Shown here: piece after piece, positions 1-59,518 of the stretch
How the letters are laid out: each line of letters opens with the position of its first letter
How positions within the stretch are numbered: the stretch's first letter is position 1
Virus record (IMG/VR): IMGVR_UViG_3300025122_000016
Coordinates: 1-59,518 of that record
Source of the DNA: a virus
Lineage: Duplodnaviria; Caudoviricetes
Reading direction: 5' to 3' (one strand)
DNA: 59,518 nucleotides
Position numbers and translations under genes: made by a program
The notes under the pieces: generated by a model
What the model was told of the DNA's origin: nothing
What the model saw: only the letters and a program-made list of their open reading frames with translations
The model's database searches: none

Positions 1-145
1 TCCAGCATCGACTAACAGCTTATGTAGTCGGATAACCTCAAGTCTGACTTGCGGATCGGTAATCTGCAATTTTGACTCTGCCGGATGGGAATCAACAGCA
101 TCGTTGGCGCGTTTCAAGATTTTGAGAAGTAACCACGTCGGAACC
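1..145. repeat. Terminal direct repeat, left copy (assembly overlap of a circular/permuted genome)
   Basis: 1-145 equals 59374-59518 except C19 vs T59392; a reading frame continues across the junction. Confidence 0.95.
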
Positions 146-528
146 TTGGTTTCTTTAGCATAATCGTACCATCTGCTACCATCGGCCCAGTAGTGGTCAA
201 CACTTATCTCAAACTTGCCATCGACCTCTTTCCCGACGATCTCACCGTCCCATGACACATTCTTACCAAACGCCTTTTTATTGACGTTCCAGACCACACC
301 GAAGGATGCCTCAACATATTGCACCATGCGAGCGGTGTCTACTCCCTTCGGGCAATCCTTCACAATGTCAGTAAAAAGTGTGGCATTGAAGTGGTTGGCG
401 TAATGCTGGCCAGCAGAGACGAGCAGTTGGTGATACAGATCACGCATCGTTTTAGCTTTTGCGTGGACTGCTTTAATCTGCTTGGGAAGGTCGGCTTCTG
501 CAATGATTGATTTGATTGATGTGCTCAT
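1..528 (-). CDS. First early protein, 185 aa, spanning the circular junction (continues 59373..59344)
   Basis: Manual translation: ATG at 528, MSTSIKSIIAEADLPKQIKAVHAKAK...DAGLPLIEDKAA, TGA at 59346-59344; GAGGA RBS upstream; absent from the ORF track because it crosses the end. Confidence 0.85.
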   Translation of the reverse strand, partial: MSTSIKSIIAEADLPKQIKAVHAKAKTMRDLYHQLLVSAGQHYANHFNATLFTDIVKDCPKGVDTARMVQYVEASFGVVWNVNKKAFGKNVSWDGEIVGKEVDGKFEISVDHYWADGSRWYDYAKETKVPTWLLLKILKRANDAVDSHPAESKLQITDPQVRLEVIRLHKLLVDAG

Positions 529-540
529 AATAAATATTCC

Positions 541-1048
541 TCATGAGATTACGGATCACCGGAATTGGTAATCCCTCAATCAACCTACAGGTTCTGGTGT
601 TTACAACTTTGCAATGTATCCGGCGCCTACCGCCCGAGAAGGGCCGCGCTCAGTGCGCGGTGTCGCGTGGGACGCGATCGCTTACAACCCCATGTCAGCC
701 TATCGGCCTACCGTATCAAGGAATCTGCGGTGTAGCCCGCTTTCACCTACACCATCTTCAAACTACCAGTGGAGTCTGAATCAATCGGTGCAACTCTGGT
801 TCGATCCAATCACCATTACGCCATCTCAAGCGCGTTGGCCTACCACATTATTCACACTTGCCAAGCCCCGATACTCAAGTCACTTTCGATCATATCGCTA
901 CGGGAGTCAGATGCTACGTTGTGGTAGCGGATTATCCGGCGCCCTACCCGCTGTTCTTTAACGTCTGCTCGGCATGCACTAGCAAGACGTACATCCTTGC
1001 GACACCTTATTGTGCCGCTTGTTGGGCCTCGAATTGACAACCCAACAC
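541..1048 (-). ncRNA. Candidate long structured leader/ncRNA
   Basis: About 54% GC by hand count over 601-1020 in an otherwise AT-rich genome; at least 10 hairpins; A.C mismatches on + become G.U pairs on -; no convincing CDS. Confidence 0.55.
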
Positions 1049-1052
1049 CCAC

Positions 1053-1058
1053 ATTATA
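1053..1058 (-). promoter_or_regulatory. Sigma70-type -10 box (TATAAT) of the leftward early promoter
   Basis: Perfect TATAAT on -; predicted start ~1047 coincides with the first hairpin; no clear -35. Confidence 0.5.
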
Positions 1059-1096
1059 CATAATCCGCACAATGTTTTCTTTATTTAAGGTTTTGA

Positions 1097-1109
1097 GATC
1101 AATGGTTTA
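1097..1109 (+). promoter_or_regulatory. IHF-like site
   Basis: GATCAATGGTTTA vs consensus WATCAANNNNTTR (1 mismatch) in the divergent control region. Confidence 0.3.
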
Positions 1110-1227
1110 CAAAAGGAACCCCTAATCCGCAGGCGGGGGTGTCCGACTTTCCGACGCAGCGGTTGCCCACCCCCATACATACATTAAAAAACTCACACGC
1201 ACACACTAAGGGGGCGTTTTATGCAGG

Positions 1228-1263
1228 ATTTTATGTGGCTTTGCTTAAAATTTTACATAAAAT
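1228..1263. promoter_or_regulatory. 9-bp inverted repeat (operator-like) upstream of the rightward promoter
   Basis: ATTTTATGT-N18-ACATAAAAT. Confidence 0.35.
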
Positions 1264-1295
1264 AATCTGAAGTGCGCCAGTTGGTACCCCTAATA

Positions 1296-1304
1296 TGCTA
1301 TAAT
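1296..1304 (+). promoter_or_regulatory. Extended -10 promoter (TGCTATAAT) for the rightward/late arm
   Basis: Perfect TGnTATAAT; ATG at 1311 lies at the expected +1. Confidence 0.6.
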
Positions 1305-1310
1305 ATAGGT

Positions 1311-1502
1311 ATGGGGAAGCGTAATATAGCAAGAATCAAGACTAAACCTAGGTCAAAGATTGATGTACCTGATATAGAGTATCTGGCAATGCCTGATTGG
1401 ATGGTTGATAAGGAGGGGACTGGTACCCATACTTCCATATATGAAGATTCTTTAGATGGTACTACTTGGTATGATGAACGTATCGAGACTGCACGGGGTT
1501 AA
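1311..1502 (+). CDS. Hypothetical protein (probably leaderless)
   Basis: ORF 1272..1502; ATG 1311 preferred as it lies just after the promoter. Confidence 0.6.
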   Translation: MGKRNIARIKTKPRSKIDVPDIEYLAMPDWMVDKEGTGTHTSIYEDSLDGTTWYDERIETARG

Positions 1503-1542: not shown

Positions 1543-1710
1543 ATGGCAGTAAAAAAGAAAAAACAGGGTTATAATGATAGACTTGACGAGAGACTTGGCA
1601 TGACCCGTGGGAAACAGGGCGACAAAAAAATGTCTTCAGCTGGCCGTCGTGCTGTTTCTAAAGGGGCCCGAAAGAAGAAAGGGTCCTATGGCTTTAAGAA
1701 AGTCAAGTAG
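1543..1710 (+). CDS. Small Lys/Arg-rich protein, 55 aa
   Basis: MAVKKKKQGYNDRLDERLGMTRGKQGDKKMSS...KKVK; GGGAG RBS; below the ORF-track cutoff. Confidence 0.75.
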   Translation: MAVKKKKQGYNDRLDERLGMTRGKQGDKKMSSAGRRAVSKGARKKKGSYGFKKVK

Positions 1711-2191
1711 TTCTGCTGCGGATTATCCTTCCAGTTCAACGAATCCTGAACTTCCTATACTTGCCTTCCCTGATCCTAGATTAAGGAAGAAGGGTAAGGA
1801 TGTAAAGAAGGTTACGGATTCTGAGACAAACCTTGCAAGACGGATGGCTTATACAATGTATAGCAATGAAGGTATCGGCCTTGCTGCTACTCAGGTGAAT
1901 TTTCAAAAAAATATAATTGTAATGGACACCTCTGAAGAGAGGGATGATCTATACGTAATGATAAATCCTGAGATAGTGGCAAGGTCTGGTACCGCAAGAA
2001 CAAGTGAAGCCTGTTTGTCAGTGCCCGGGTTACGTGCTTTAGTAAACAGGTCTGAGGATATAATAGTAAAGTATACTGATTTGTCTGGTGTAGAGATAGA
2101 AGAAAATTTTAACGATATGCAATCTTACTGCGTACAGCATGAGATAGATCACCTCAATGGTAAAATATTAATTGATCATATAGCTAACTAA
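1688..2191 (+). CDS. def: Peptide deformylase
   Basis: Motif I GIGLAATQ, motif II EACLS, motif III QHEIDHLNG; N-terminal ILAFPDPRLR. Confidence 0.95.
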   Translation: MALRKSSSSAADYPSSSTNPELPILAFPDPRLRKKGKDVKKVTDSETNLARRMAYTMYSNEGIGLAATQVNFQKNIIVMDTSEERDDLYVMINPEIVARSGTARTSEACLSVPGLRALVNRSEDIIVKYTDLSGVEIEENFNDMQSYCVQHEIDHLNGKILIDHIAN

Positions 2192-32937: not shown

Positions 32938-35900
32938 ATGGCTGACAATCAAGAGCAAAAAATTTATCTATTTGATTACCCTGCTGTAACTAGGTGGGAT
33001 ACTCCAGTTGATCAATTGAATCAAGCATTGGATACTACAAATGTAAGTTCAGAAGAAAGAAGTCTTGCAGAAGCTTTCCATGGAGGTTACAAGAACCTTC
33101 AACATCTTGCAGCTTCATACATGATGAAAACAGGGAAGCAACTTCTTGACCCTGAAGGGTTTGAGCATGAGGGTATAGGTCGGTGGCTGTTTGAGACTGG
33201 CGAAGATTGGTATACAGAAGTAGGCGCTGACATTGCAGATGACAAACACAGGCCGCGATGGAAAGATGTTGAGGGCGTAGGAGAAACTAGCTCATGGTTT
33301 GCTGATGCTATAGCAGAACAAATACCATTGATGGCTCCCGGCGTGATTGGTGGTGGTCTTGTTGGTATTGCTGCAGCTGCCGCTGGTTGGCCTGTGCTTG
33401 CTGTAACAGGCGCTGTATGGGGGACTGTAGGCTTAACAAGTTACTTGCTGAATACTGGGGATGCTTACTCAAAGCAACTACAGAAGGGCGGAAAAATAGA
33501 TGAACATGTTGCTGACGTTGCTGGTGTTGTAGCTGCTGCTTTTGATGTTATCATACCCGGCGTTATAACTGGTAAGGTTGTAAAAGCTTTAGGTCCTAAG
33601 CTATCTAAGAATTTACGTGATGGATTGCAGAAAAATGTAGCTAAAAATTTAAGGCTAAATACTGCTGTAGGTACTAGGATAAAAAGAGGTATAACGTATG
33701 CTCTTGTTGAGGGATCTACAGAGTATCTGCAAGAAGGGTTGCTAGAGGCCAGTGTAAATTATGTAAATGATCTGCCTCCTTTTGATTATAGCCCAGAACA
33801 AAAAGAGATAATGACAGAGGCATTCTGGGTTGGATGGGGTGCCGGTGGTGCTTTTGGGGTGACTACCCCTACTGGTAGCAGGGCTCAGAGAAAAGCCCTT
33901 GAGGCTGAATCTGCGGCTGCTGATGCTGAAGTAGCAGCTAGTGAAGCTAAAGCTGCTGCAGATGAGGCTGTATTATCTGAGGCGGTTGATGAGTCTACTG
34001 CATTAGAGGCCATTGAAGAGGTGGCTGCTGAAGCTCCGCCGAGAAGTATGAGACGGAGAGGAACACTACCTACCACTGCACCACCTCCAGCTACTCCAGA
34101 ATTTGATACTGGGCTAGCTGGTATAGGGCCATTTGGAGACCCATTAGCTACTCCATATACTAGACCGGGGGATAGGGCTCCCCTTGATGCTGAGGAAGCA
34201 ACACTAGAAACTGGAGATCCTTATGCTCCAACAAGGATGGACAGAGTTAGATCTAGGAGAGCAGCTAGGAGAGCGGAAAGAAGCGAGGTTGATGATACCC
34301 TTGCTAGATTAGAGAGGGGTGTGGAGGCTGATGGCGGCATTCCTGTAATCACAGGACCAGCTGCTGAAACTGTTACTGCATCTGACGCTGGGTTGCTTGA
34401 CATAGGCGAACCAATACGCCCAATAAGGAAGAAGTTTGAAACAGCAGGTGAAACTGGTAGGGTACTAGGAAGGCGCAGAAGAGAGGCTAAAATAGAAGCC
34501 GAAGCTGCTGCTAGAGCTGAGCAAGAAAGATTAGACGCAATAGAAGCTGAGCGTATACTGAGAGAGAAAAGAGAAGCAGCTGACATAGAGGCTGAATCTG
34601 TTGCTTTAGCAGAGTCAAGTAATAGACAGATCCAAGATGCTGTTAATATGGCTAATACATTAATGGATCTAGTCCTAGCTAGAGGGTGGGACGAAGCTAG
34701 GACTATAAGATTTACTTCTCAAAAAGCTGGTGACATTTCTGCAAGCAATGGACAAGCTGCGGCTGATGCATTTAATGCTGTTATTTCACAAAGAATGGCA
34801 AGGGAGGCGGAGGCTAAAGCTGCTGAATCAGCGCCTACAGCTCCCAAAGCTCGCAGCCCAAAAGAAGAAGCTGAATTAGCTGCTACTATAGCAGAGCTGC
34901 AGGAAAGATTCGGTACGATATTTGAAGAAAGACCAGCCATTACACAGTTAGCTGTTTCAGCTACTCCTGAACCCGCTAAACCAAAGAAGAGACCTACAAC
35001 AAAAAGAACACCACCAGCTGTTGCACCCCCTAAAGAATCCGTTGTATGGTCTGATGATAGGGGTGTATTAACTGCTAATGTTGGTGTTGGTACGCCTGCA
35101 GAGGCAGAAGTAATAGTAAAAGAGGTTGATGGAGAGTGGGTTGCATGGGTTGGAGATGCAGAGGTAACTACTGATGGCATGCCAGAATCCGATCAAAAAG
35201 TATTTAAATCCTCAGAAGATGCAAAAAGATTTGTAATAAGACAGTATGGCTCTGAAGCTGAAGCAGCAGCCATACCAAAAGGAAGACCAAAAACGAAGGC
35301 GGCAACTGCTGGAGCTACCCCATCAGCTCCCTCATCAGCTCCGGCTCCGGCAGCTGCCCCTTCACCCTCACCAGCAAAGACTCCTACACCAAAAATAAAG
35401 AAGCCCGCTATTGGTCCTAACATGACCAAGAAGGAGTTTGATTATTATAGTACTCAAGAGGCTGGCGTTCTTTCTCAGAAGAGAATAAACTACATAGCCG
35501 CTAAAAGAGTTAGGGGAACTGAGTTAAATAAGTGGGAGAGCGGTGCTATTCTGTGGGATAATCAGGCAGAAAGAGTTGCTAGAGCAGAGGGTAGAATCCG
35601 TAAGGCAACGGAGAAGCCTGCTGAGAAGCCAGCGGCTGCCAGAAAACCTTTAAGGGTTCTTCCGTATTCCAAAGTAACAACTAATGAAGAAGGGATACCG
35701 CTCCAGATAGAAAAAAATGATGAAGGTACATTCAACTTACTTCTTGGTGTAGAAGATCAAAATGTAATTGGAGTGTACAAATCTAGATCAACTGCTAAAA
35801 ACGTAGCTGATGGCCTTACATCATCTGATGTAGGTAAGAGATTGGCAGCTCCTTTAAAGCTCGAGGCAAGAACTTTAAGAAGAGATTATTCTGATTGGAA

Positions 35901-38900
35901 GAAGCGAGCTGTTGCACTAAGAGGTATGGGTGAACAGAAAAGGGAACAGGCGGAGCGTGATGCAGAAACTTATAGAATATATAAAGGACCGTTACCAGTA
36001 CCTCGTAAGGTTGGTGAAAGATTTACTGAAGTAGCGGTTGGAGTAAAGGAACTACCTGACGGAAGGTATGAAGTAGTAGCGCATTATCATAAGAGAAGGG
36101 GTGTAGCTGTAAAGGGGTCTGTTACAGGAAAGAGAGCGGCAATACCTTTAGCTCTTTTTCATGCAGATACTAGGGCAGGTGCAGAGGCTATAAGAGATTC
36201 CATAATCACAAACCAACAAGAATTCTATGATCTTGTTAGGATGCACCATGAGGTAGGTAATAGATTTATAGAGATGGGGCGTGGTGATAATAGAGTTTTA
36301 TTCCATATGGATGAAGATGCCTTCTTGGAGAATTGGCTATCCAGAGTAAGCCCATCAGAGCGAGTAGAAATTGAAAATGCATTTACCTCACCTGATGTAC
36401 CTGTTGCGATTGATATCGAAGAAGCGACTGCAGAAGAGGCTGCTATGGCTGAGAAAGCTAAAGCTATTGCCTCAGCTAATAAAGCTAAAGCAGATCAGAG
36501 GGTATTAGATAGGGAAGCAACAGAAAAAGCTCTAGCAAAAGAGGAAAGAGATGCACGTATAGAAGCAGAGAACGCTAAAAAAAAAGTAGATGATGCGTTA
36601 GAAGCTGAAGAAGATATAGTTACAGTTGAGGGAGAGTTAGTTGATAAGCCAGTAGGTATTGTTACAGATTCTGACGCAAGAAGAGATGTAGCTGACTTTT
36701 TTGAACAAGTAGTGCTTGATCAAAGCTATCTCACCGATCAAGACTTTGAAAGAATTGGAGAGATTTATAGAGAGAACCCAATGATAGAGTTGGGTGATAG
36801 ACAGATTACTGCTCAGGAGTATATTCTTGAGCAGTATGAAGAGTCCGGCTTTAGTGATCAAATGATTGCGGAGCGTTTAGAGGTAGCCATACCTGATATA
36901 GATTCTGCGGCTACTCCTCCAATCATTCAATATCTAGAGGAATCCCCTCTTGATGGTATAGAATCTATATCTGCGAAGCTTGATTTAGCGCAACCTGAAC
37001 TTACAGTATCTCATGTCGGAGCAACCGATATCGAAGGAAGGACTGATGACGCTCTAAGATCTTTAGAGATGCAAGGCGATCTTAATAAGAGGCTTGGAAG
37101 AGGCTCACATTATAATCTCTCGCTACCATTTACAGAAACTAAGATTGATATTATTGAAGGCAATGACTTCTTAGAAGGTGCAGGGCATGGCGCTGATATA
37201 GTTGTTCTTCATAGGATTCCTGATGAGGCAACTGCCAGATCTTTAGATAGAGTAGCAGCTGAGATAGGGTACGAAGGAGGGATTTCAGAAGGGCATACTC
37301 TTGATAATTGGAAACAGGCTATATCTGATAGTGGCGCAGATCTTGTTTACATCTTTGGGTCTGGTTCTGCTGGAGACTTCAACGGCCTTGACTTTCAGAG
37401 AGTTCCCGGATATGAGATGGTTGGCGATTGGAACCAAGAAGGGGATATGGAGGCTGGCCAATATGCAGTGCTTAAGAAACTTAGAGAGCACCCTTGGAAG
37501 GATAGGGATCTAGACCCAGCATGGTTACTTGATAGTCCTGTAGAAGAGGAGCAGACAGCTGAGCAGCAAACTCAGGAGATGATTGAGAAGGAGCAAGCTA
37601 CTGCAGAAAGAGAAGCTGCAGAAGCTGCAGAAGAGGCTGCTATAGAGCAAGAGATTGCTGATGCAGAGCAAGATTTGATCATAGGGCAAGAGCCTACTCT
37701 TGATTCCGATGAGTTAGCAATAACTGATTGGGATGCTACAAAAGAAATAGAAGCAGAGATAAGAAACGAGAGAAGACTAGCTCAGAAAAAGACTGACGCT
37801 AATAGAGTTGAGCCTTCTTATGTTTTAGGTATGACTCCAGAAGAAATAAAAAGATCTCTAAAGAGACGACCATCCGAAGGCGGCTATTCTGCCGTAGAAA
37901 TAAATACATTATTACAAAATATAGTTTCATGGGGTGATGAAATATCTACCATTCGTGGTGGAGAAGAAGTCCTCATTGATCCGTCTATAACCCAAAAAGC
38001 TACACGTAAAGCAAAGACAGAAGCAATACTTGATTGGCATAAGCTTGCTAATGATTATGTTATTCTGCGGGATTCTGATCAGGATGCATTCGATGTACCA
38101 GAGATGGAGATAGATGAAGCTCCAGAGTTTATGGTTGAGAAGACTGATGATGGTATGTTTCTTAAAAAGGATGAAGGGGCTTTAGTACACAATGTAGTAA
38201 AGAATAATACTGAGGTAAAATCTAGATTCAGAAAGGCTATGCACCGGATCTGGGGCATAACAGCCACGAAAAGGATGGAGAAGATTGGCTTTATAAAGTA
38301 TGTAACTTTCGATGAAGCAAAGGAACTTATACCATCTTTCTTAGATCGCGAAGGATTAAGAACAAAGATAACAGATAGATACTTAGCCTATTCAGCGCCT
38401 ACTGGAGGTATAATATTTATAACAGATAACCTTCGCAAATACTCTCCATTAGATACTGAATCTGTAAGAGGGATTGTATTTCATGAGTTAGGCGTTCATT
38501 TTGGTAAGGGGATATTCTCCAATAGAGAGCTTGCTAGTATACTAGATCTAACAAAAGATATGTGGCGTATGGGAAATCCTGAAATCAATGAAGCTTACGA
38601 TAAGGTTGTCAGATCTTACTTACCTAAAGAAGCCTTTACCGCTCAGGGGTTGCTCAATAAGAGGGGTGTTGGCTGGTTTAGAGGCTATCAGGAGTGGGGG
38701 AAAGTAGGCGAGGAAGCAGCACTTGTCGGAGAGGGGGCCGCTGTGTTTTGGGAGGAGGTTCTTGCTCATTTTGTTGAGAATAGTTCTCCAGATATTAATC
38801 CAACTTTATGGCAGAAAATACAAACATCTTTTAAATTGTTTATGCGTAGGTTGCTATCTACTTGGACCGATCAGGATGTCATTGATAACTTTACCACAAA

Positions 38901-41900
38901 TGATTTAAAGAATACTATTTCTTATGCATTGCGTCATGTCCCTGATATGGCTCTGGCGCGGTATGGTGACACTAGAGCTATTGAAAGATTAAGGAATAAG
39001 AAGAGGGCTGATTTCTTAGAAGAGTCTGTAGTAAAAAGACCATTGTATCATTACACTACAGCTGACTTTCACTACCCTGTATATGAGTTTACAGAGTTAG
39101 GAATGCATCTAGGCACTATGGATGCAGCCATTAGGATAGGCTTAAAGGGTAATGAACATCAGACAATGGATAACTACGGTGCATTAAGAGGTCAGCCGGG
39201 TATTGATTTTATAGATGACCCCTACGATAGCAGTCTGTATAATAGGAATTTAAAAAATGTTGTTCTTAATTGGGGTAGGCCCTTTCCGGTACAGAGAGCT
39301 GGAAAAAGAACTCCTGTATCTCTAAACAATAAATCCTTGATAGTTCTTGATCCGAGAACTGAAGAGTATTATTATGTTTCCAAAGGAAGGAATTTTATCA
39401 TACCAGTTGCCGGTAATGAGGAAGAGATATCTACAAGACAGAAAATAGAGATGTCCTCAAGAGAAGCAAATCGGTTGACAACAGATGCTAATACTGCAGA
39501 GTTTATATCGGAAAAGCTAGGCAGTGCTGAAGGAAGGGGTATTGAGTGGGCTCAGTTTGAAGATAAATACGTTATCTTTCCTCAAGGTGGTTCTATAAAG
39601 GAAGGGTATGCAAGCATAAAAAATCCATTAAGGATACCGATTGATCTATACGCATGGCATATGCCATCCTCATGGGGAAGGTTTATTGATCTTGAGTCAT
39701 TAACCGATCAATCTGTTATTGATGCTTTAGGATCGGAGTGGTCTCAAGCTAATCGATATACTGGTCCTTCTCCTATAGCTGCTCAGATGAGTAAAGAGAA
39801 ATATGAGGAGTGGAATGACTTTATAGTAAGAAATCTAAAGCATCAAGCATTTTTAAATTCTGAGATAGCCAAGGCTAATCAGAAAGTTTGGGACAATCAG
39901 GCAGAGGAGCAAAGGGGAGAAGTAGAGGGCATTGATCATGAATTAGTAGATAAGAGAGATAGTCTAGAGGAAGACAAAGAGATTCACTTCAAAGAATTTA
40001 GTAGGTATATACGGGATCTTCTAACTGATTTTGGATTCGACTCCATAGAGTATATCAACTACCACGAGCATGAACTTAGTAGATCATATATAGTCTTTAA
40101 TGATGGCCAATTCAAAACAACAGACTCTTTGGCGTGGAGGCCAGAGAATTTAGGCATGGGATTCAAGAAGGTTCTTGATGAAACAGTTGCTGATGAAGTT
40201 AAAAAGACTATGCCTCTGGCTGTTGAGTCAACAAAGCAATTAGGTAAAGGTATTGTTGGTAATGCTAGAGCGGATGGATTCTTAACTAAGATGCAGAAAT
40301 TGGTAGAACCATTGGCTACTGTTCCCGGGTGGGAAGAGCTTGAGGTTGGCAGGATGCTTGCAAAAGGCGAGTCTACAATTGCAGTTAACCAAGCTAGAGT
40401 AATATTTGATATTCTTAATCAGGCTAATAGAAAAGAAAAGAAGGCTATCTTTGAGTACTTCACTACAAGAGGTGCCTCTCCAGATAGCCTACCAACAAGA
40501 ACGGTTGATTACGCAGGGGTAGAGTCAGTACTTGGGGGAAGGAGAACTAGTGGGATAGGGGTTGATCCAGATAATATTCATAATGTAAGCATAAAAGATA
40601 AGGTAATTGAAGTAAAGAAATCCATAGAGGGGTATGGAGAAGAACTAGTAGACAGGGGATTGATAAGTCAAGATCAGTATTCAGAGCTGAAAGGCAAGTA
40701 TTTACCACAGCTGTATCTTAAATATCTAGTAGATGACAGCATGCGTAGGTCTTTAGGTACGGGACTAAAGGCATCTACTTTGGATTATACAAAGGCTAGA
40801 AAGGTTCACGATGAGTGGATTGCTCAAATTCTTTTTGGCAAGATTGATGATCCAGCATTCTTGGCGTCAAGATATGTTGGTCAGGTTGGGAGAGACATAT
40901 CGATTATAAAGTACTTGCAATTTATAGCTTCTGACCCCGGCAATAACAAGTGGGTAATACCACAACAGCTTGTAAGTTACAGGGGCATCAATGGAACAGC
41001 AGACTTTTTCCTTAATGAGTCAGCTGGCCTAAGCCATAGGGCAGATATAACAGAGAAGACTGATCCAGAAAGAGCTAAAGAGATGCGTACTATTTCATCT
41101 GAAATGAATAGAGCTGCTAATAGTGTGCAAGATTTTAGCGTGTACAATCAAAAGATGTATAAGCGTATGCCTTCTCATCCAAGGTATGGTGCTATGCGAG
41201 GTCTGTTAGTGCGAAAAGAAATATATGATGACCTTGTTGGATTGTCGACATCCGGCGAGATGTCGTTACCTCAAAGCTTTCTAAGTGATAGAGGCTGGGG
41301 CACCAAGATAACTCAAGTGTTTAAATATACTAGAGTGCCAATGAATATACCAACACAGGCTCGCAACTTTGTGTCTAACATGATACTGTTACATACATCT
41401 GGAGCTGGCGGGGTGCTTGGTTTGGGTATTCCTAGACTGATAACAAAGTCAATGAGTGATATTGTTAATAATGGCAAGTATATGCAGATAGCTAGGAAGT
41501 ATGGAATTGAAGGAACCACATTTGCTACTGAAGAGTTAGCAAGGATAGACAGGGAGTTACTTGCAGTAAAGGCAAGCGGGGATACGTTTGAAGGAGCCAA
41601 AGCCAGAGCCGCTATATTTTTTGATAACTGGATCGACATAGCAGGAAGAGCATACCAGAAATCAGAAGTGCTTTTTAAGGTAGCAAAAATAATGGATGGA
41701 ATGGAGAAGGGGCTTAAGGAATCTGATGCTGTACGGGCGGCAAACAATGCTATCATAGACTACAGCCAAGTATCCCAAGGCATAAGGTATTTGCGTAGAG
41801 TCCCATTCGGTTCTCCATTTATAACATTTAATGCTAAGGTCCTACCTCAGTTGTTGAGAAACCTTAAGAGTAATCCATTGCATTTCTTGCCTTATGTTGC

Positions 41901-42684
41901 GCTGCCCTATATAATAAAGGAAGCTTTAATTGCACAGCATGAGGATTTAGATGACGAGGATGTTAATATTCTAAAGAGGTTGTTGCCTGAGTGGGCTAGA
42001 GAAAGGGCTGGAATATATTTCCTACCATTTAAAGATGAGAACAATAGATGGACCGCGCTTGATCTAGGGTACATGTTACCATGGACGGCGCATTTTGAAC
42101 TGTCTAAGAACTTAGGTAAGGGAGAGTTCGGTAAAGCTTTTGGCAATACAGGTATGTTTACTGGGCCAATGGACCTTGTTGTTGGATTGAAGACAAACCA
42201 AGATCCATTCTTAAATAAAGAGATATGGAATGATTCTGATCCAGCGGCGCAACAGTACCAAGATATCCTAGGCTTTATAACAAGTTATATAGTTCCTCCA
42301 TTCATGTCCCCAAGGAATCAATCAGGAGATACAATAACTGGCGGCGGTCCAATCATAAAGTTAATGATGGCCTCTGGATATATGGATGGTAATATAGATT
42401 CTGATGGGCTACCTAGGTATACTGTACCACGGTCGTGGGCTTCCATGTTTGGGTTTAATACATATAATGTAAATGAACTTTCCGCCGCAAGAAATGTTCA
42501 GTGGATGGAGAGGGAGGCTCTTAGGATAGAGAAGCGGTTAAACAATTTATTACTTAATCCTAATCTATCCATGGAAAAAAGACAGAAGCTTTATACAGCG
42601 TATGTTGAGCATCTAGCAGATAAGGTTAGGAAGACTTACGAGTACTATGATAGCGTGAAGGGCTATGAAAAAATGTTCCAATAA
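32938..42684 (+). CDS. Giant polyvalent DNA-ejection protein, 3248 aa (metallopeptidase + ADP-ribosyltransferase + C-terminal translocation region)
   Basis: FHELGVH...EEVLAH; PLYH.T...GMHLGT...SIKNPL...GFDSIEY.N.HE..SYIVF..GQFK; C-terminal helical region (IDYSQV, PFITF, NQDPF...IW). Confidence 0.8.
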   Translation: MADNQEQKIYLFDYPAVTRWDTPVDQLNQALDTTNVSSEERSLAEAFHGGYKNLQHLAASYMMKTGKQLLDPEGFEHEGIGRWLFETGEDWYTEVGADIADDKHRPRWKDVEGVGETSSWFADAIAEQIPLMAPGVIGGGLVGIAAAAAGWPVLAVTGAVWGTVGLTSYLLNTGDAYSKQLQKGGKIDEHVADVAGVVAAAFDVIIPGVITGKVVKALGPKLSKNLRDGLQKNVAKNLRLNTAVGTRIKRGITYALVEGSTEYLQEGLLEASVNYVNDLPPFDYSPEQKEIMTEAFWVGWGAGGAFGVTTPTGSRAQRKALEAESAAADAEVAASEAKAAADEAVLSEAVDESTALEAIEEVAAEAPPRSMRRRGTLPTTAPPPATPEFDTGLAGIGPFGDPLATPYTRPGDRAPLDAEEATLETGDPYAPTRMDRVRSRRAARRAERSEVDDTLARLERGVEADGGIPVITGPAAETVTASDAGLLDIGEPIRPIRKKFETAGETGRVLGRRRREAKIEAEAAARAEQERLDAIEAERILREKREAADIEAESVALAESSNRQIQDAVNMANTLMDLVLARGWDEARTIRFTSQKAGDISASNGQAAADAFNAVISQRMAREAEAKAAESAPTAPKARSPKEEAELAATIAELQERFGTIFEERPAITQLAVSATPEPAKPKKRPTTKRTPPAVAPPKESVVWSDDRGVLTANVGVGTPAEAEVIVKEVDGEWVAWVGDAEVTTDGMPESDQKVFKSSEDAKRFVIRQYGSEAEAAAIPKGRPKTKAATAGATPSAPSSAPAPAAAPSPSPAKTPTPKIKKPAIGPNMTKKEFDYYSTQEAGVLSQKRINYIAAKRVRGTELNKWESGAILWDNQAERVARAEGRIRKATEKPAEKPAAARKPLRVLPYSKVTTNEEGIPLQIEKNDEGTFNLLLGVEDQNVIGVYKSRSTAKNVADGLTSSDVGKRLAAPLKLEARTLRRDYSDWKKRAVALRGMGEQKREQAERDAETYRIYKGPLPVPRKVGERFTEVAVGVKELPDGRYEVVAHYHKRRGVAVKGSVTGKRAAIPLALFHADTRAGAEAIRDSIITNQQEFYDLVRMHHEVGNRFIEMGRGDNRVLFHMDEDAFLENWLSRVSPSERVEIENAFTSPDVPVAIDIEEATAEEAAMAEKAKAIASANKAKADQRVLDREATEKALAKEERDARIEAENAKKKVDDALEAEEDIVTVEGELVDKPVGIVTDSDARRDVADFFEQVVLDQSYLTDQDFERIGEIYRENPMIELGDRQITAQEYILEQYEESGFSDQMIAERLEVAIPDIDSAATPPIIQYLEESPLDGIESISAKLDLAQPELTVSHVGATDIEGRTDDALRSLEMQGDLNKRLGRGSHYNLSLPFTETKIDIIEGNDFLEGAGHGADIVVLHRIPDEATARSLDRVAAEIGYEGGISEGHTLDNWKQAISDSGADLVYIFGSGSAGDFNGLDFQRVPGYEMVGDWNQEGDMEAGQYAVLKKLREHPWKDRDLDPAWLLDSPVEEEQTAEQQTQEMIEKEQATAEREAAEAAEEAAIEQEIADAEQDLIIGQEPTLDSDELAITDWDATKEIEAEIRNERRLAQKKTDANRVEPSYVLGMTPEEIKRSLKRRPSEGGYSAVEINTLLQNIVSWGDEISTIRGGEEVLIDPSITQKATRKAKTEAILDWHKLANDYVILRDSDQDAFDVPEMEIDEAPEFMVEKTDDGMFLKKDEGALVHNVVKNNTEVKSRFRKAMHRIWGITATKRMEKIGFIKYVTFDEAKELIPSFLDREGLRTKITDRYLAYSAPTGGIIFITDNLRKYSPLDTESVRGIVFHELGVHFGKGIFSNRELASILDLTKDMWRMGNPEINEAYDKVVRSYLPKEAFTAQGLLNKRGVGWFRGYQEWGKVGEEAALVGEGAAVFWEEVLAHFVENSSPDINPTLWQKIQTSFKLFMRRLLSTWTDQDVIDNFTTNDLKNTISYALRHVPDMALARYGDTRAIERLRNKKRADFLEESVVKRPLYHYTTADFHYPVYEFTELGMHLGTMDAAIRIGLKGNEHQTMDNYGALRGQPGIDFIDDPYDSSLYNRNLKNVVLNWGRPFPVQRAGKRTPVSLNNKSLIVLDPRTEEYYYVSKGRNFIIPVAGNEEEISTRQKIEMSSREANRLTTDANTAEFISEKLGSAEGRGIEWAQFEDKYVIFPQGGSIKEGYASIKNPLRIPIDLYAWHMPSSWGRFIDLESLTDQSVIDALGSEWSQANRYTGPSPIAAQMSKEKYEEWNDFIVRNLKHQAFLNSEIAKANQKVWDNQAEEQRGEVEGIDHELVDKRDSLEEDKEIHFKEFSRYIRDLLTDFGFDSIEYINYHEHELSRSYIVFNDGQFKTTDSLAWRPENLGMGFKKVLDETVADEVKKTMPLAVESTKQLGKGIVGNARADGFLTKMQKLVEPLATVPGWEELEVGRMLAKGESTIAVNQARVIFDILNQANRKEKKAIFEYFTTRGASPDSLPTRTVDYAGVESVLGGRRTSGIGVDPDNIHNVSIKDKVIEVKKSIEGYGEELVDRGLISQDQYSELKGKYLPQLYLKYLVDDSMRRSLGTGLKASTLDYTKARKVHDEWIAQILFGKIDDPAFLASRYVGQVGRDISIIKYLQFIASDPGNNKWVIPQQLVSYRGINGTADFFLNESAGLSHRADITEKTDPERAKEMRTISSEMNRAANSVQDFSVYNQKMYKRMPSHPRYGAMRGLLVRKEIYDDLVGLSTSGEMSLPQSFLSDRGWGTKITQVFKYTRVPMNIPTQARNFVSNMILLHTSGAGGVLGLGIPRLITKSMSDIVNNGKYMQIARKYGIEGTTFATEELARIDRELLAVKASGDTFEGAKARAAIFFDNWIDIAGRAYQKSEVLFKVAKIMDGMEKGLKESDAVRAANNAIIDYSQVSQGIRYLRRVPFGSPFITFNAKVLPQLLRNLKSNPLHFLPYVALPYIIKEALIAQHEDLDDEDVNILKRLLPEWARERAGIYFLPFKDENNRWTALDLGYMLPWTAHFELSKNLGKGEFGKAFGNTGMFTGPMDLVVGLKTNQDPFLNKEIWNDSDPAAQQYQDILGFITSYIVPPFMSPRNQSGDTITGGGPIIKLMMASGYMDGNIDSDGLPRYTVPRSWASMFGFNTYNVNELSAARNVQWMEREALRIEKRLNNLLLNPNLSMEKRQKLYTAYVEHLADKVRKTYEYYDSVKGYEKMFQ

Positions 42685-59373: not shown

Positions 59374-59518
59374 TCCAGCATCGACTAACAGTTTATGTAG
59401 TCGGATAACCTCAAGTCTGACTTGCGGATCGGTAATCTGCAATTTTGACTCTGCCGGATGGGAATCAACAGCATCGTTGGCGCGTTTCAAGATTTTGAGA
59501 AGTAACCACGTCGGAACC
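59374..59518. repeat. Terminal direct repeat, right copy
   Basis: Matches 1-145 with one mismatch. Confidence 0.95.

Follow-up and report, generated by a model that had tools for sequence, protein, structure and literature searches.

A long untranslated leader, conserved at its two ends, that may open the leftward early operon of an uncultured marine phage group

The early transcripts of the phages HK022 and lambda carry cis-acting antitermination RNA elements, put and nut, at their start. In the case of put, RNA polymerase becomes resistant to terminators through two conserved stem-loops that closely follow the promoter. The early leader of phage T7 holds an RNase III site upstream of gene 0.3. 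Another element, the SAM/SAH riboswitch aptamer (RF01727), adopts an H-type pseudoknot in which the hairpin loop pairs with the Shine-Dalgarno sequence. In the titles and abstract openings of a small part of the literature on untranslated early-operon leaders and ncRNAs of phages, we met no element such as the one discussed here.

Here, we focus on a noncoding locus of a tailed phage (Duplodnaviria; Caudoviricetes) represented by IMG/VR record IMGVR_UViG_3300025122_000016, of which the whole stretch analyzed, 59,518 nt, is called the window. A preliminary description had proposed that positions 541-1048, read on the minus strand, are a hairpin-dense, GC-rich leader RNA of about 500 nt and a candidate undescribed large phage ncRNA. 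On balance, and with limited confidence, we favor a different arrangement, in which roughly 529-1180 of the minus strand is a long untranslated, cis-acting 5' leader of the leftward early/replication operon and 541-1048 is its lineage-specific core. The features of the locus are as follows:

1..528 (minus strand), first leftward gene, 185 aa once the wrap is read, PHROG 1448
526..600 (minus strand), conserved 3' module of the leader, comprising the RBS-proximal hairpin 553-574 and the Shine-Dalgarno region
529..1180 (minus strand), whole putative 5' leader of the leftward early operon, with start motif and start codon (at 528) about 652 nt apart
541..1048 (minus strand), region of the preliminary description, a core that is rich in GC (53%), free of ORFs and lineage-specific, and that has local hairpins
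1053..1058 (minus strand), TATAAT, possible secondary promoter specific to the window (sequence present)
about 1090..1192 (minus strand), conserved promoter-proximal 5' block, with a T-run and a -10-like stretch rich in AT, followed by ATGGGG and about 70 nt more
1171..1188 (minus strand), start motif TTTAATGTATGTATGGGG, candidate leftward promoter and transcription start, an exact match to the family motif and conserved in relatives
1296..1304 (plus strand), extended -10 (TGCTATAAT) of the divergent rightward promoter, read from the sequence, with an ATG 7 nt later at 1311

The ends of the contig overlap by 145 nt with one mismatch, from which it follows that the genome is circular or complete, and therefore that the leftward arm truly spans 528, through the wrap, to about 43018. 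Its first gene has distant homologues at the same position in related phages, has no relative among PDB sequences, and matches only viral hypothetical clusters in the Atlas. On the rightward side, the promoter string TAATATG[C/G]TATAAT is common to related loci L002, L007, L012, L014, L016, L033 and L036, and the ORF at 1311-1502 has gene-like codon usage (score 0.275). The leader lies where the two transcription arms diverge, at the minimum of the cumulative GC skew, and an HTH, terminase-small-like gene is found about 1 kb away. A giant ORF of 3248 aa was considered as a virion RNA polymerase because such an enzyme would imply hairpin promoters; it was dropped, having no Pfam, PHROG or PDB-sequence match. 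Contigs from two RNA-library runs cover only 1472-1851 and 2304-2563 and, being contigs, are uninformative on transcription of the leader. Sequencing-run contigs, as distinct from reads, gave no sign of molecule ends or of a pile-up of ends.

The composition of the core is as first described. The GC content of 601-1020, put at about 54%, was measured as 0.540, with 0.530 for 541-1048 and 0.421 for the whole window. The absence of a credible coding sequence is likewise borne out, as all ORFs and 60-codon frame windows within 541-1180 score below all 31 reference genes, whose codon-usage log-odds range from 0.073 to 0.362; the best such frame window reaches -0.01. That the region hides an unrecognized protein-coding gene is accordingly very improbable. 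Two ORFs are open, one of 72 codons at 852-1070 on the minus strand and one of 115 codons at 614-961 on the plus strand, antisense to the leader, and a 69-aa, 97% identical product of the former is on record. Against this, neither codon pattern is gene-like (scores of -0.09 and -0.21, below 31 of 31 real genes), neither ORF has a Pfam match, and the near-identical copy is the sole homologue of the minus-strand ORF among 5.8 billion clusters. Moreover, in a hand reading of one natural variant contig of low depth, C949T and G950A convert codon 41 of the minus-strand ORF from CGG to TAG, while the GC content at the three codon positions of the plus-strand ORF is 0.53/0.60/0.52 versus 0.51/0.42/0.34 in real genes. 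Both ORFs were rejected as genes.

No homologue of the window's leader core could be retrieved by blastn, protein-anchored or pattern searches. With blastn there was no match among GenBank phages, and a comparison of 529-1300 with all 71 related loci aligned nothing outside 1162-1215. The first pass of a contig scan anchored on the first-gene protein found none, and the second returned only L020, which is the same phage with 98 nt of leader, and L021, which is without a leader. A protein homology search for relatives of the window's lineage gave P0001 at 97% and P0002 at 80%, and a contig scan with P0002 found no further leader. A DNA pattern for the hairpin at 553-574 matched the L014 contig only. 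Within the leader, an 11-mer, TATCCGGCGCC, is repeated at 617 and 933; an internal duplication was rejected, since the two halves have no meaningful alignment. The pentamer GTAGG occurs six times on the sense strand of the window's leader versus 0.43 expected, an enrichment absent from relatives. The sense-strand ratio of G to C exceeds 1 in 12 of 12 leaders examined (1.12-1.59), which is not diagnostic of Rho avoidance because the coding arm is likewise richer in G than in C (1.41). As for the minus-strand TATAAT at 1053-1058, previously taken as the promoter, the sequence is present but a promoter scan does not flag it, and no relative aligns to the stretch of the leader in which it falls.

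The hairpins on which the original proposal was built exist, all 12 of them:

1020-26/1041-47, 1001-05/1012-16, 961-66/985-90, 913-17/924-28, 787-90/811-14 and 797-99/806-08, verified stems of the first part
757-64/773-80, 729-35/747-53, 663-68/672-77, 644-49/655-60, 632-35/641-44 and 553-60/567-74, verified stems of the second part

It is also correct that in the stems at 553, 757 and 1001 an A.C mismatch on the plus strand is a G.U pair on the minus strand. Watson-Crick stems, for their part, are equally present on both strands of 541-1048, and the folding energy of the region is no better than that of shuffled sequences on either strand. The minimum free energy of the minus strand is -176.6 versus a shuffle mean of -170.3 (z -1.04; 15 of 100 shuffles as good), and the plus strand has a z of -0.29 (40 of 100 as good). 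Counting local hairpins with stems of at least 7 bp and G.U pairs allowed, the minus strand has 7 versus 5.4 +/- 1.35 after shuffling (43 of 200 shuffles reach 7) and the plus strand 8 versus 3.9 +/- 1.3 (1 of 200 reaches 8). Sliding windows of 150 nt along the minus strand have a mean z of -0.59, within the range of 12 coding control segments (-0.38 +/- 0.44). Three of these 11 windows fall below -2, and they lie at both ends (1130-931 and 680-531), with values of -2.2 to -2.8 at 931-1130; the middle (980-581) gives -0.3 to +1.5. At the gathering score, Rfam 15 has no match in the whole window, and a lenient search (E<=10) of 400-1400 yielded only three chance-level matches (E 1.5-9.5). Rfam also gave no match in the leaders of 15 related loci, and ARAGORN found no tRNA. 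The leader matches no Rfam family, with the models of ROOL, GOLLD, group I/II introns and riboswitches all included. With ordinary folding, no Rfam match and a middle that is mosaic and unalignable among relatives, the idea of one large, globally structured, undescribed ncRNA of about 500 nt is not upheld. Nor is that of a stand-alone RNA, as a scan of the minus strand found no intrinsic terminator separating the region from the first gene. In GC-rich DNA, a series of short stems listed by hand is, alone, no indication of a large ncRNA.

More can be learned from related leaders in uncultured marine phages. In 14 of 14 loci, some of them near-identical copies, an ORF-poor, GC-raised stretch lies at the same place, upstream of a homologous first leftward gene, and an AT-rich trough of 11-33% GC lies further upstream. 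The window shows the same order, with its ORF-poor, GC-raised stretch between the first leftward gene and an AT-rich trough. Related leaders have 46-54% GC versus 41-46% for their loci. Start motif and start codon lie 652 nt apart in the window and 649-1075 nt apart in 15 related loci, the only ones in which the start-motif regex truly matched. Only the two ends of the leader, the 5' block and the RBS-proximal hairpin, are conserved. The middle is mosaic and lineage-specific; it is unalignable between lineages, and close relatives exchange the core outright (L046/L048 and L052/L061). As the core is replaced wholesale between related lineages, there is no fold conserved across the family. In L041, L067, L046 and L048 the leader holds a small protein family, so that part of that leader is a real gene; a profile of this protein has no match in the window. 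An internal AGUCCGUAACCCGAAAGGGAACUG hairpin occurs in lineages B and D and in L066 (motif regex in 12 of 43 leader sequences) and is absent from the window by regex, where the nhmmer profile A8 has no match either.

The conserved element at the 5' end begins at about 1180-1190, some 130 nt upstream of the boundary at 1048 drawn in the preliminary description. By blastn, 1162-1215 matches 9 loci at 80-84% identity, and a profile of the 5' block detects it in 43 of 72 loci (39 distinct contigs); the central part of the window's own block has diverged from its relatives. The start motif at 1171-1188 probably works as a promoter. From the conserved ATG, a mini-ORF is open in 12 of 12 sequences by hand translation; it was rejected as coding because the block shows no 3-periodicity (entropies of 0.79/0.64/0.64 at the three codon positions). 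Two pairs of the stem that closes the block vary only as G.U/A-U and C-G/U.G, changes that are workable only in the minus sense. The 12 sequences analyzed have no stable common fold (z -1.8 to +1.1), and double changes were seen in none of the 8 pairs of the block.

At the 3' end, just upstream of the Shine-Dalgarno sequence, relatives have a hairpin of the type GGAUUnC/GnnAUCC with an inner stem of 7-8 bp and an outer stem of 4-7 bp, homology being judged by eye. The window has a hairpin of this type at 553-574, with an 8-bp stem including a U.G pair and a loop, AAUUCC, identical to that of L014. Over 13 leaders and 7 pairs, 91 of 91 cells are paired and both sides have changed in 4 of the 7 pairs. 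The covariation score was reached by 0 of 500 shuffles, and controls slid along the sequence were paired in only 21-45% of cells. In addition, 10 of the 91 cells are G.U pairs when read on the minus strand, where the opposite strand would have A.C. Covariation thus shows that the conserved hairpin at 553-574 is an RNA structure. Also sustained is the earlier view that the region heads the leftward early/replication arm, is noncoding and is probably read as RNA in the minus sense. When the covariance model R1 was run over both strands of the whole 59.5-kb window, its best match was 526-600 on the minus strand, full-length at 16.8 bits; with an E of 0.24 for the whole window, this match is convincing only in combination with its position. 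A sequence-only profile of the relatives' larger 3' domain has no match in the window. Read from the sequence, the loop AAUUCC is complementary to GGAAU in the window's Shine-Dalgarno region.

How the core itself should be understood is where the explanations part. It might be a discrete, large, fast-evolving structured RNA that keeps a fold or a function while its sequence turns over. It would then either serve the 17-kb operon as a factor-independent antiterminator or work in trans as an early RNA, for instance as an anti-defense decoy. All the relatives examined have their GC content up by about 10 points at this locus, something uncommon in noncoding phage DNA. The strongest compensatory signal comes from one lineage, where L056/L063 have 20 double-compensatory pairs along the leader versus 5.5 expected in the sense direction (reached by 0 of 300 permutations) and 10 versus 5.2 in antisense; L052/L063 have 20 versus 11.6 (P 0.013) and L052/L054 have 3 versus 0.19. 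The adjacent coding gene, used as a control in ten tests, gave no such excess, and the RNAalifold covariation term of the lineage with the signal is -8.9, with several hairpins of 2-4 compensatory pairs. Together with the low z-scores at 931-1130 and the GTAGG repeats of the window, this speaks for a structured core. The signal is weak or absent elsewhere (L036/L039, 8 versus 9.7; L014/L039, 11 versus 7.7; L041/L067 in sense, 2 versus 2.8), and in L054/L056 and L041/L067 it is as strong in antisense as in sense or stronger. For lineage D (L033/L036/L039), which aligns poorly, the covariation term is an unfavorable +3.0. The window's core does not surpass shuffles or coding controls in its folding and matches no Rfam family, no terminator separates it from the first gene, and the GTAGG enrichment is not common to relatives. 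Cores swapped between close relatives and unalignable between lineages, leader lengths of 649 to 1075 nt and a real small protein gene within one lineage's leader also count against a discrete structured RNA, which we consider unlikely. Unlikely as well is the broader proposal that the GC-raised cores are fast-diversifying, lineage-specific structured early RNAs, transcribed before anything else on infection and held between two conserved handles. Such RNAs would serve the entire 17-kb operon in cis, by antitermination or by shielding against Rho, or would be processed at the hairpin to yield a trans decoy, with their turnover reflecting a host arms race.

The same turnover could mean that only the two conserved ends matter and that the core is a neutral spacer left by recombination or gene loss in a hyperplastic early region. 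Mosaic replacement between close relatives, the occurrence of small ORFs in certain lineages only (L041/L067/L046/L048), and the ordinary folding energy of the window all fit such a spacer. Drift toward AT would be the expectation for a neutral spacer in a phage, whereas all lineages have raised GC, and compensatory evolution in one lineage also disagrees with neutrality; we hold this explanation, too, to be doubtful. Quite improbable, finally, is that the region acts mainly as DNA, forming with the AT-rich trough a replication origin or a packaging/terminus region in which the inverted repeats are protein sites or cruciforms. Its place at the divergence point and GC skew minimum, the adjoining trough conserved in relatives, the terminase-small-like gene nearby, the equality of Watson-Crick stems on both strands and the many related contigs that break within the region would all suit such a role. 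However, in a cruciform, as on the plus strand, the 10 G.U cells of the hairpin would turn into A.C mismatches, and two pairs of the 5'-block stem show the same strand asymmetry. A search found no iteron-like direct repeats, only short two-copy families, and the contigs show no pile-up of molecule ends.

On the reading that we prefer, that of a cis-acting untranslated leader, host RNA polymerase would begin transcription at about 1176-1188, at the conserved AT-rich motif whose end is ATGGGG. The first 90 nt or so of the transcript would be the conserved block, closed by a stem that pairs only in the minus sense, and this block probably protects the 5' end or provides a regulatory contact. The next 450-500 nt or so would be G-rich, GC-raised, untranslated RNA with local hairpins. 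The hairpin at 553-574 may then set the processing, stability or translation of the first gene, and its loop could pair with the Shine-Dalgarno region. The leader would act in cis rather than as a separate RNA gene. If so, the early operon of a widespread group of uncultured marine phages begins with a leader that is unusually long (650-1075 nt), GC-raised and conserved at two ends only, its 5' block being found on at least 39 distinct contigs. The group would then carry two small RNA elements absent from Rfam, the 5' block and the RBS-proximal hairpin with its SD-pairing loop. Such a leader would also raise the question of why untranslated GC-rich RNA persists when its sequence is exchanged from lineage to lineage.

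With ROOL, GOLLD and other large ncRNAs, the leader shares a size class of about 500 nt, a phage context and a GC content above that of the genome. Unlike ROOL and GOLLD, the leader family is without a multi-stem architecture conserved across lineages. In HK022 put and lambda nut, the place at the start of the early transcript corresponds to that of the conserved 5' block of about 90 nt; the block, however, lacks a stable two-stem fold and compensatory pairs, and neither an antiterminator protein nor target terminators have been identified here. The likeness to T7 is one of layout. In both, several hundred untranslated nt separate host-type early promoter(s) from the first early gene, an irregular hairpin stands immediately upstream of the ribosome-binding site of that gene, and the first early protein is small. 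In contrast to T7, the leader here is 650-1075 nt long, GC-raised and variable between lineages, its operon diverges from the structural arm, and the hairpin has an inner stem of only 7-8 bp with 4-7 bp of outer stem. As for the SAM/SAH riboswitch, RF01727 has no match in 505-625 of the window or in 1-120 of L014. The RBS-proximal hairpin of L056 does align to it, at 22.8 bits and an E of 0.01 versus a gathering score of 40, with 8 consensus loop positions missing from the alignment. Both show a stem of 7 bp, a loop of CUUCC and, at a similar spacing, a downstream GGAGCA. The resemblance of the leader hairpin to the SAM/SAH riboswitch is not one of membership but of architecture.

The window, an IMG/VR virus contig, is 59,518 bp long. 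Its first 145 nt (1-145) recur at its end (59374-59518) with 1 mismatch, which indicates an assembly of ~59.37 kb that is circular or complete, though the record is labelled 'linear'. The preliminary description had a GC-rich stretch, 541-1048(-), heading a leftward operon of ~17 kb, and the minus-strand arm is indeed continuous, running from ~43018 to the last position of the window and on across the wrap as far as 528. Among cultured phages the closest portal match is to Vibrio phages (36.8% identity) and none is close. The 3248-aa ORF of the plus arm (32938-42684(+)) has no match in Pfam, PHROG or PDB sequences. The features of the two arms and of the interval between them are:

~43018 through the wrap to 528, minus strand: leftward arm, with ribonucleotide reductase, dUTPase, SSB, exonuclease, primase/helicase, HNH protein and ATPase genes
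1-528 through the wrap, minus strand: first leftward gene, 185 aa, completed from related locus L020; PHROG 1448, function unknown
~1090-1192, minus strand: conserved 5' block, with an exact match to the start motif at 1171-1188
1296-1304, plus strand: extended -10 TGCTATAAT, perfect, with the ATG at 1311 following after 7 nt
from ~1311, plus strand: rightward arm, with peptide deformylase, HTH terminase-small-like protein, large terminase, SU10-type portal and the 3248-aa ORF
1607-2191, plus strand: peptide deformylase (Pfam E 4e-46), directly upstream of the terminase-small-like HTH gene

With the terminase-small-like gene as anchor, 18 and then 61 related loci (L-numbers) were collected from IMG/VR, all of which keep the pair of peptide deformylase and terminase-small-like HTH gene. 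Going upstream from the homologue of the first leftward gene, one meets an ORF-poor, GC-raised stretch and then an AT-rich trough (11-33% GC in the related loci) in 14/14 loci holding that gene, a count that includes some near-identical copies. Such copies (L007/8/9, L048/49/51, L056/58/60, L067/68, L043/44) mean that locus counts overstate the number of independent lineages. From shared start motif to start codon, the leaders of relatives measure 649-1075 nt at 46-54% GC. With the stretch at the same place in relatives, the leader locus is conserved across this phage group. What is kept is its position and not its sequence: in all-against-all blastn of the leaders, one block only is common to nearly all. 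The L046 and L048 leaders show 89% identity across 472 nt on the promoter side, have nothing in common over the next ~560 nt and return to 94% identity across the final 65 nt; L052 and L061 have the promoter side alone in common, and window 529-1300 aligns to other loci at 1162-1215 only.

Codon log-odds, with 31 genes of the same phage as training set (range 0.073 to 0.362), upheld the earlier finding of no credible CDS: no 60-codon window of 541-1180, whatever the frame, exceeds -0.01. Two open frames were rejected as genes, 852-1070(-) at -0.09 and 614-961(+) at -0.21, both under all 31 training genes. The sole database homologue of the former is a 97% identical twin. Two independent metagenome runs, marine or from vents, carry natural variants at a depth of ~4-5 (X10 has C949T and C1068T, and X10 and X15 each have G950A). 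By hand reading, C1068T loses the GTG start of ORF 852-1070(-), and C949T with G950A, together in one variant contig, turns its codon 41 into TAG, which is weak evidence against the frame because that contig's depth is low. In the L041/L067/L046/L048 lineage, a genuine small gene, encoding 82-102 aa, lies within the 'leader' just downstream of the 5' block (L041:2601-2909(-); L067:3706-4014(-); sense ORFs at leader positions 236-508 in L046 and 236-484 in L048). Between sublineages its product keeps 36-40% identity even where the DNA has ceased to align; neither the window nor the other lineages have such a gene.

The preliminary description also saw the region as dense in hairpins. All 12 listed pairings are present, three of them with A.C on the plus strand and hence G.U on the minus, and GC is raised as reported (54.0% for 601-1020 and 53.0% for 541-1048, vs 42.1% for the whole window). 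The density itself is not above chance: minus-strand stems of >=7 bp number 7 vs 5.4 expected, and folding energy (MFE) has z = -1.04 for the minus strand, a level that 15/100 shuffles reach, and z = -0.29 for the plus strand. Averaged over sliding windows, z is -0.59, within the span of 12 coding controls (-0.38 +/- 0.44). Only both ends, 1130-931 and 680-531, hold windows with z < -2, and the middle, 980-581, ranges from -0.3 to +1.5. The Rfam check yielded no match in the window, and no tRNA/tmRNA match either. In one related phage contig, L005:7764-7839(+) matches the Rfam tmRNA model at 55.1 bits vs a gathering threshold of 47 over just 76 nt, possibly a tRNA-like element. The pentamer GTAGG has 6 copies in the leader sense strand (584-947(-)) vs 0.43 expected and 0 antisense, and the 11-mer TATCCGGCGCC is present twice, at 617 and 933; neither is common to relatives.

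Compensation was scored by predicting structure from one sequence and asking if pairs are kept under a relative's substitutions, with permuted substitutions as the null. By this test, the sense strand of lineage B (L052, L054, L056 and L063) gives a clear positive, with 20 double-compensatory pairs vs 5.5 expected in L056/L063 (0/300 permutations reach this), 20 vs 11.6 in L052/L063 (P 0.013) and 3 vs 0.19 in L052/L054. Its antisense compensation is weaker, the coding gene next to the leader gave no signal in ten control tests, and RNAalifold returned a covariation term of -8.9 with several hairpins holding 2-4 compensatory pairs each. The family therefore does include structured leaders. In lineages other than B, compensation is weak or negative: 8 vs 9.7 in L036/L039, 11 vs 7.7 in L014/L039, 2 vs 2.8 in L041/L067 (sense strand) and 4 vs 0.77 in L002/L007 (kept-pair fraction 0.32 vs 0.23, P 0.08). 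Two leader pairs have antisense compensation as strong as sense or stronger, and the alifold covariation term of lineage D (L033, L036, L039) is positive. No fold is common to different lineages' leaders, and a search of related loci and databases found no homologue of the window's own core. The earlier proposal of a new large ncRNA was not borne out for this window.

At the gene-proximal end, a 7-bp stem stands immediately before the Shine-Dalgarno (SD) sequence in 13 leaders from six sequence clusters, with 91/91 cells paired. Both sides change in 4/7 pairs, G.U stands in 10 cells, 0/500 shuffles reach the covariation score and slid controls are paired in merely 21-45% of cells; these substitution patterns show a covarying RNA structure in the minus sense. 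The top match of its covariance model in the whole window, both strands, is full-length at 526-600(-), the one expected place, with 16.8 bits and an E of 0.24 over 119 kb, modest and rough for a home-built model. The stem 553-560/567-574 noted earlier is the window's copy. Its loop, AAUUCC, is the same as that of L014. By reading, five loop bases could pair with the downstream SD region in these two, four in lineage B (L052/L056) and 2-4 in other clusters. A separate conserved hairpin, AGUYCGYRACCYGAAA..GGGARCU, whose loop is of GAAA type, follows a variable hairpin and lies ~100-130 nt ahead of the start codon in several lineages (L014, L030, L033, L039, L052, L054, L056, L058, L060, L063, L066); it matches nothing in Rfam, and the window lacks it.

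At the promoter side, the 5' block consists in order of a T-run, an AT-rich -10-like stretch, ATGGGG and ~70 nt with invariant islands; its profile was found in 43/72 loci, or 39 distinct contigs. Hand translation leaves it open as a 23-37-codon frame in 12/12 sequences; its variation lacks codon periodicity (0.79/0.64/0.64 by codon position), which makes it a nucleic-acid element and rules out a peptide gene. No stable common fold was found in the block, RNAalifold retaining an 8-bp closing stem alone, with zero double changes. Two pairs of this stem alternate (G.U with A-U, C-G with U.G), exchanges compatible with minus-sense RNA only. Leftward transcription probably starts at ~1172-1180, at the conserved motif, and the TATAAT at 1053-1058, within the part aligning to no relative, is a possible additional promoter of local reach. 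Of the two divergent promoters, the rightward one is the clearer. Its string recurs in at least seven related loci (L002, L007, L012, L014, L016, L033, L036), which indicates that these phages use host sigma-70-type promoters. ORF 1311-1502(+) has gene-like codon usage, and with the extended -10 so close to its ATG the first rightward gene may have a leaderless mRNA.

The region is non-coding, conserved in place and bounded by a conserved 5' block and the covarying RBS hairpin, and no terminator was found between leader and first gene. We lean, at a little better than even, towards a cis-acting 5' leader of the early operon. Transcription would start at the conserved motif, the 5' block and hairpin would protect, process or gate translation of the first gene, and the GC-rich core would be a tolerated, fast-changing untranslated tract that local hairpins may shield. 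A discrete, fast-evolving large RNA, for which lineage B compensation speaks and the chance-level folding of the core does not, is unlikely. So is a neutral spacer, which the mosaic replacement of the core would suit and the raised GC of every lineage would not. A DNA-level origin or packaging region is a rather improbable reading, weakened by the G.U asymmetry. A hidden gene, for all the open frames present, is very improbable given the codon scores.

Compared with curated RNA families, the region is a member of none (Rfam, window and relatives' leaders). The RBS hairpin and SD of L056 (3611-3649(-)) match the SAM/SAH riboswitch (RF01727) at 22.8 bits and E 0.01, under the gathering threshold of 40 and with eight loop positions missing; the model has no such match in the window or L014. 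The loop of that riboswitch pairs with the SD sequence, as is likewise possible in the leader hairpin, and this shared architecture accounts for the sub-threshold match, a likeness of form, not membership. Within a limited literature search, the layout of two conserved modules and a long, GC-raised, lineage-variable tract appears undescribed. By analogy, the functionally nearest systems would be the classical phage early leaders: that of T7, where an RNase III hairpin precedes gene 0.3, and those of lambda and HK022, with their nut/put elements.
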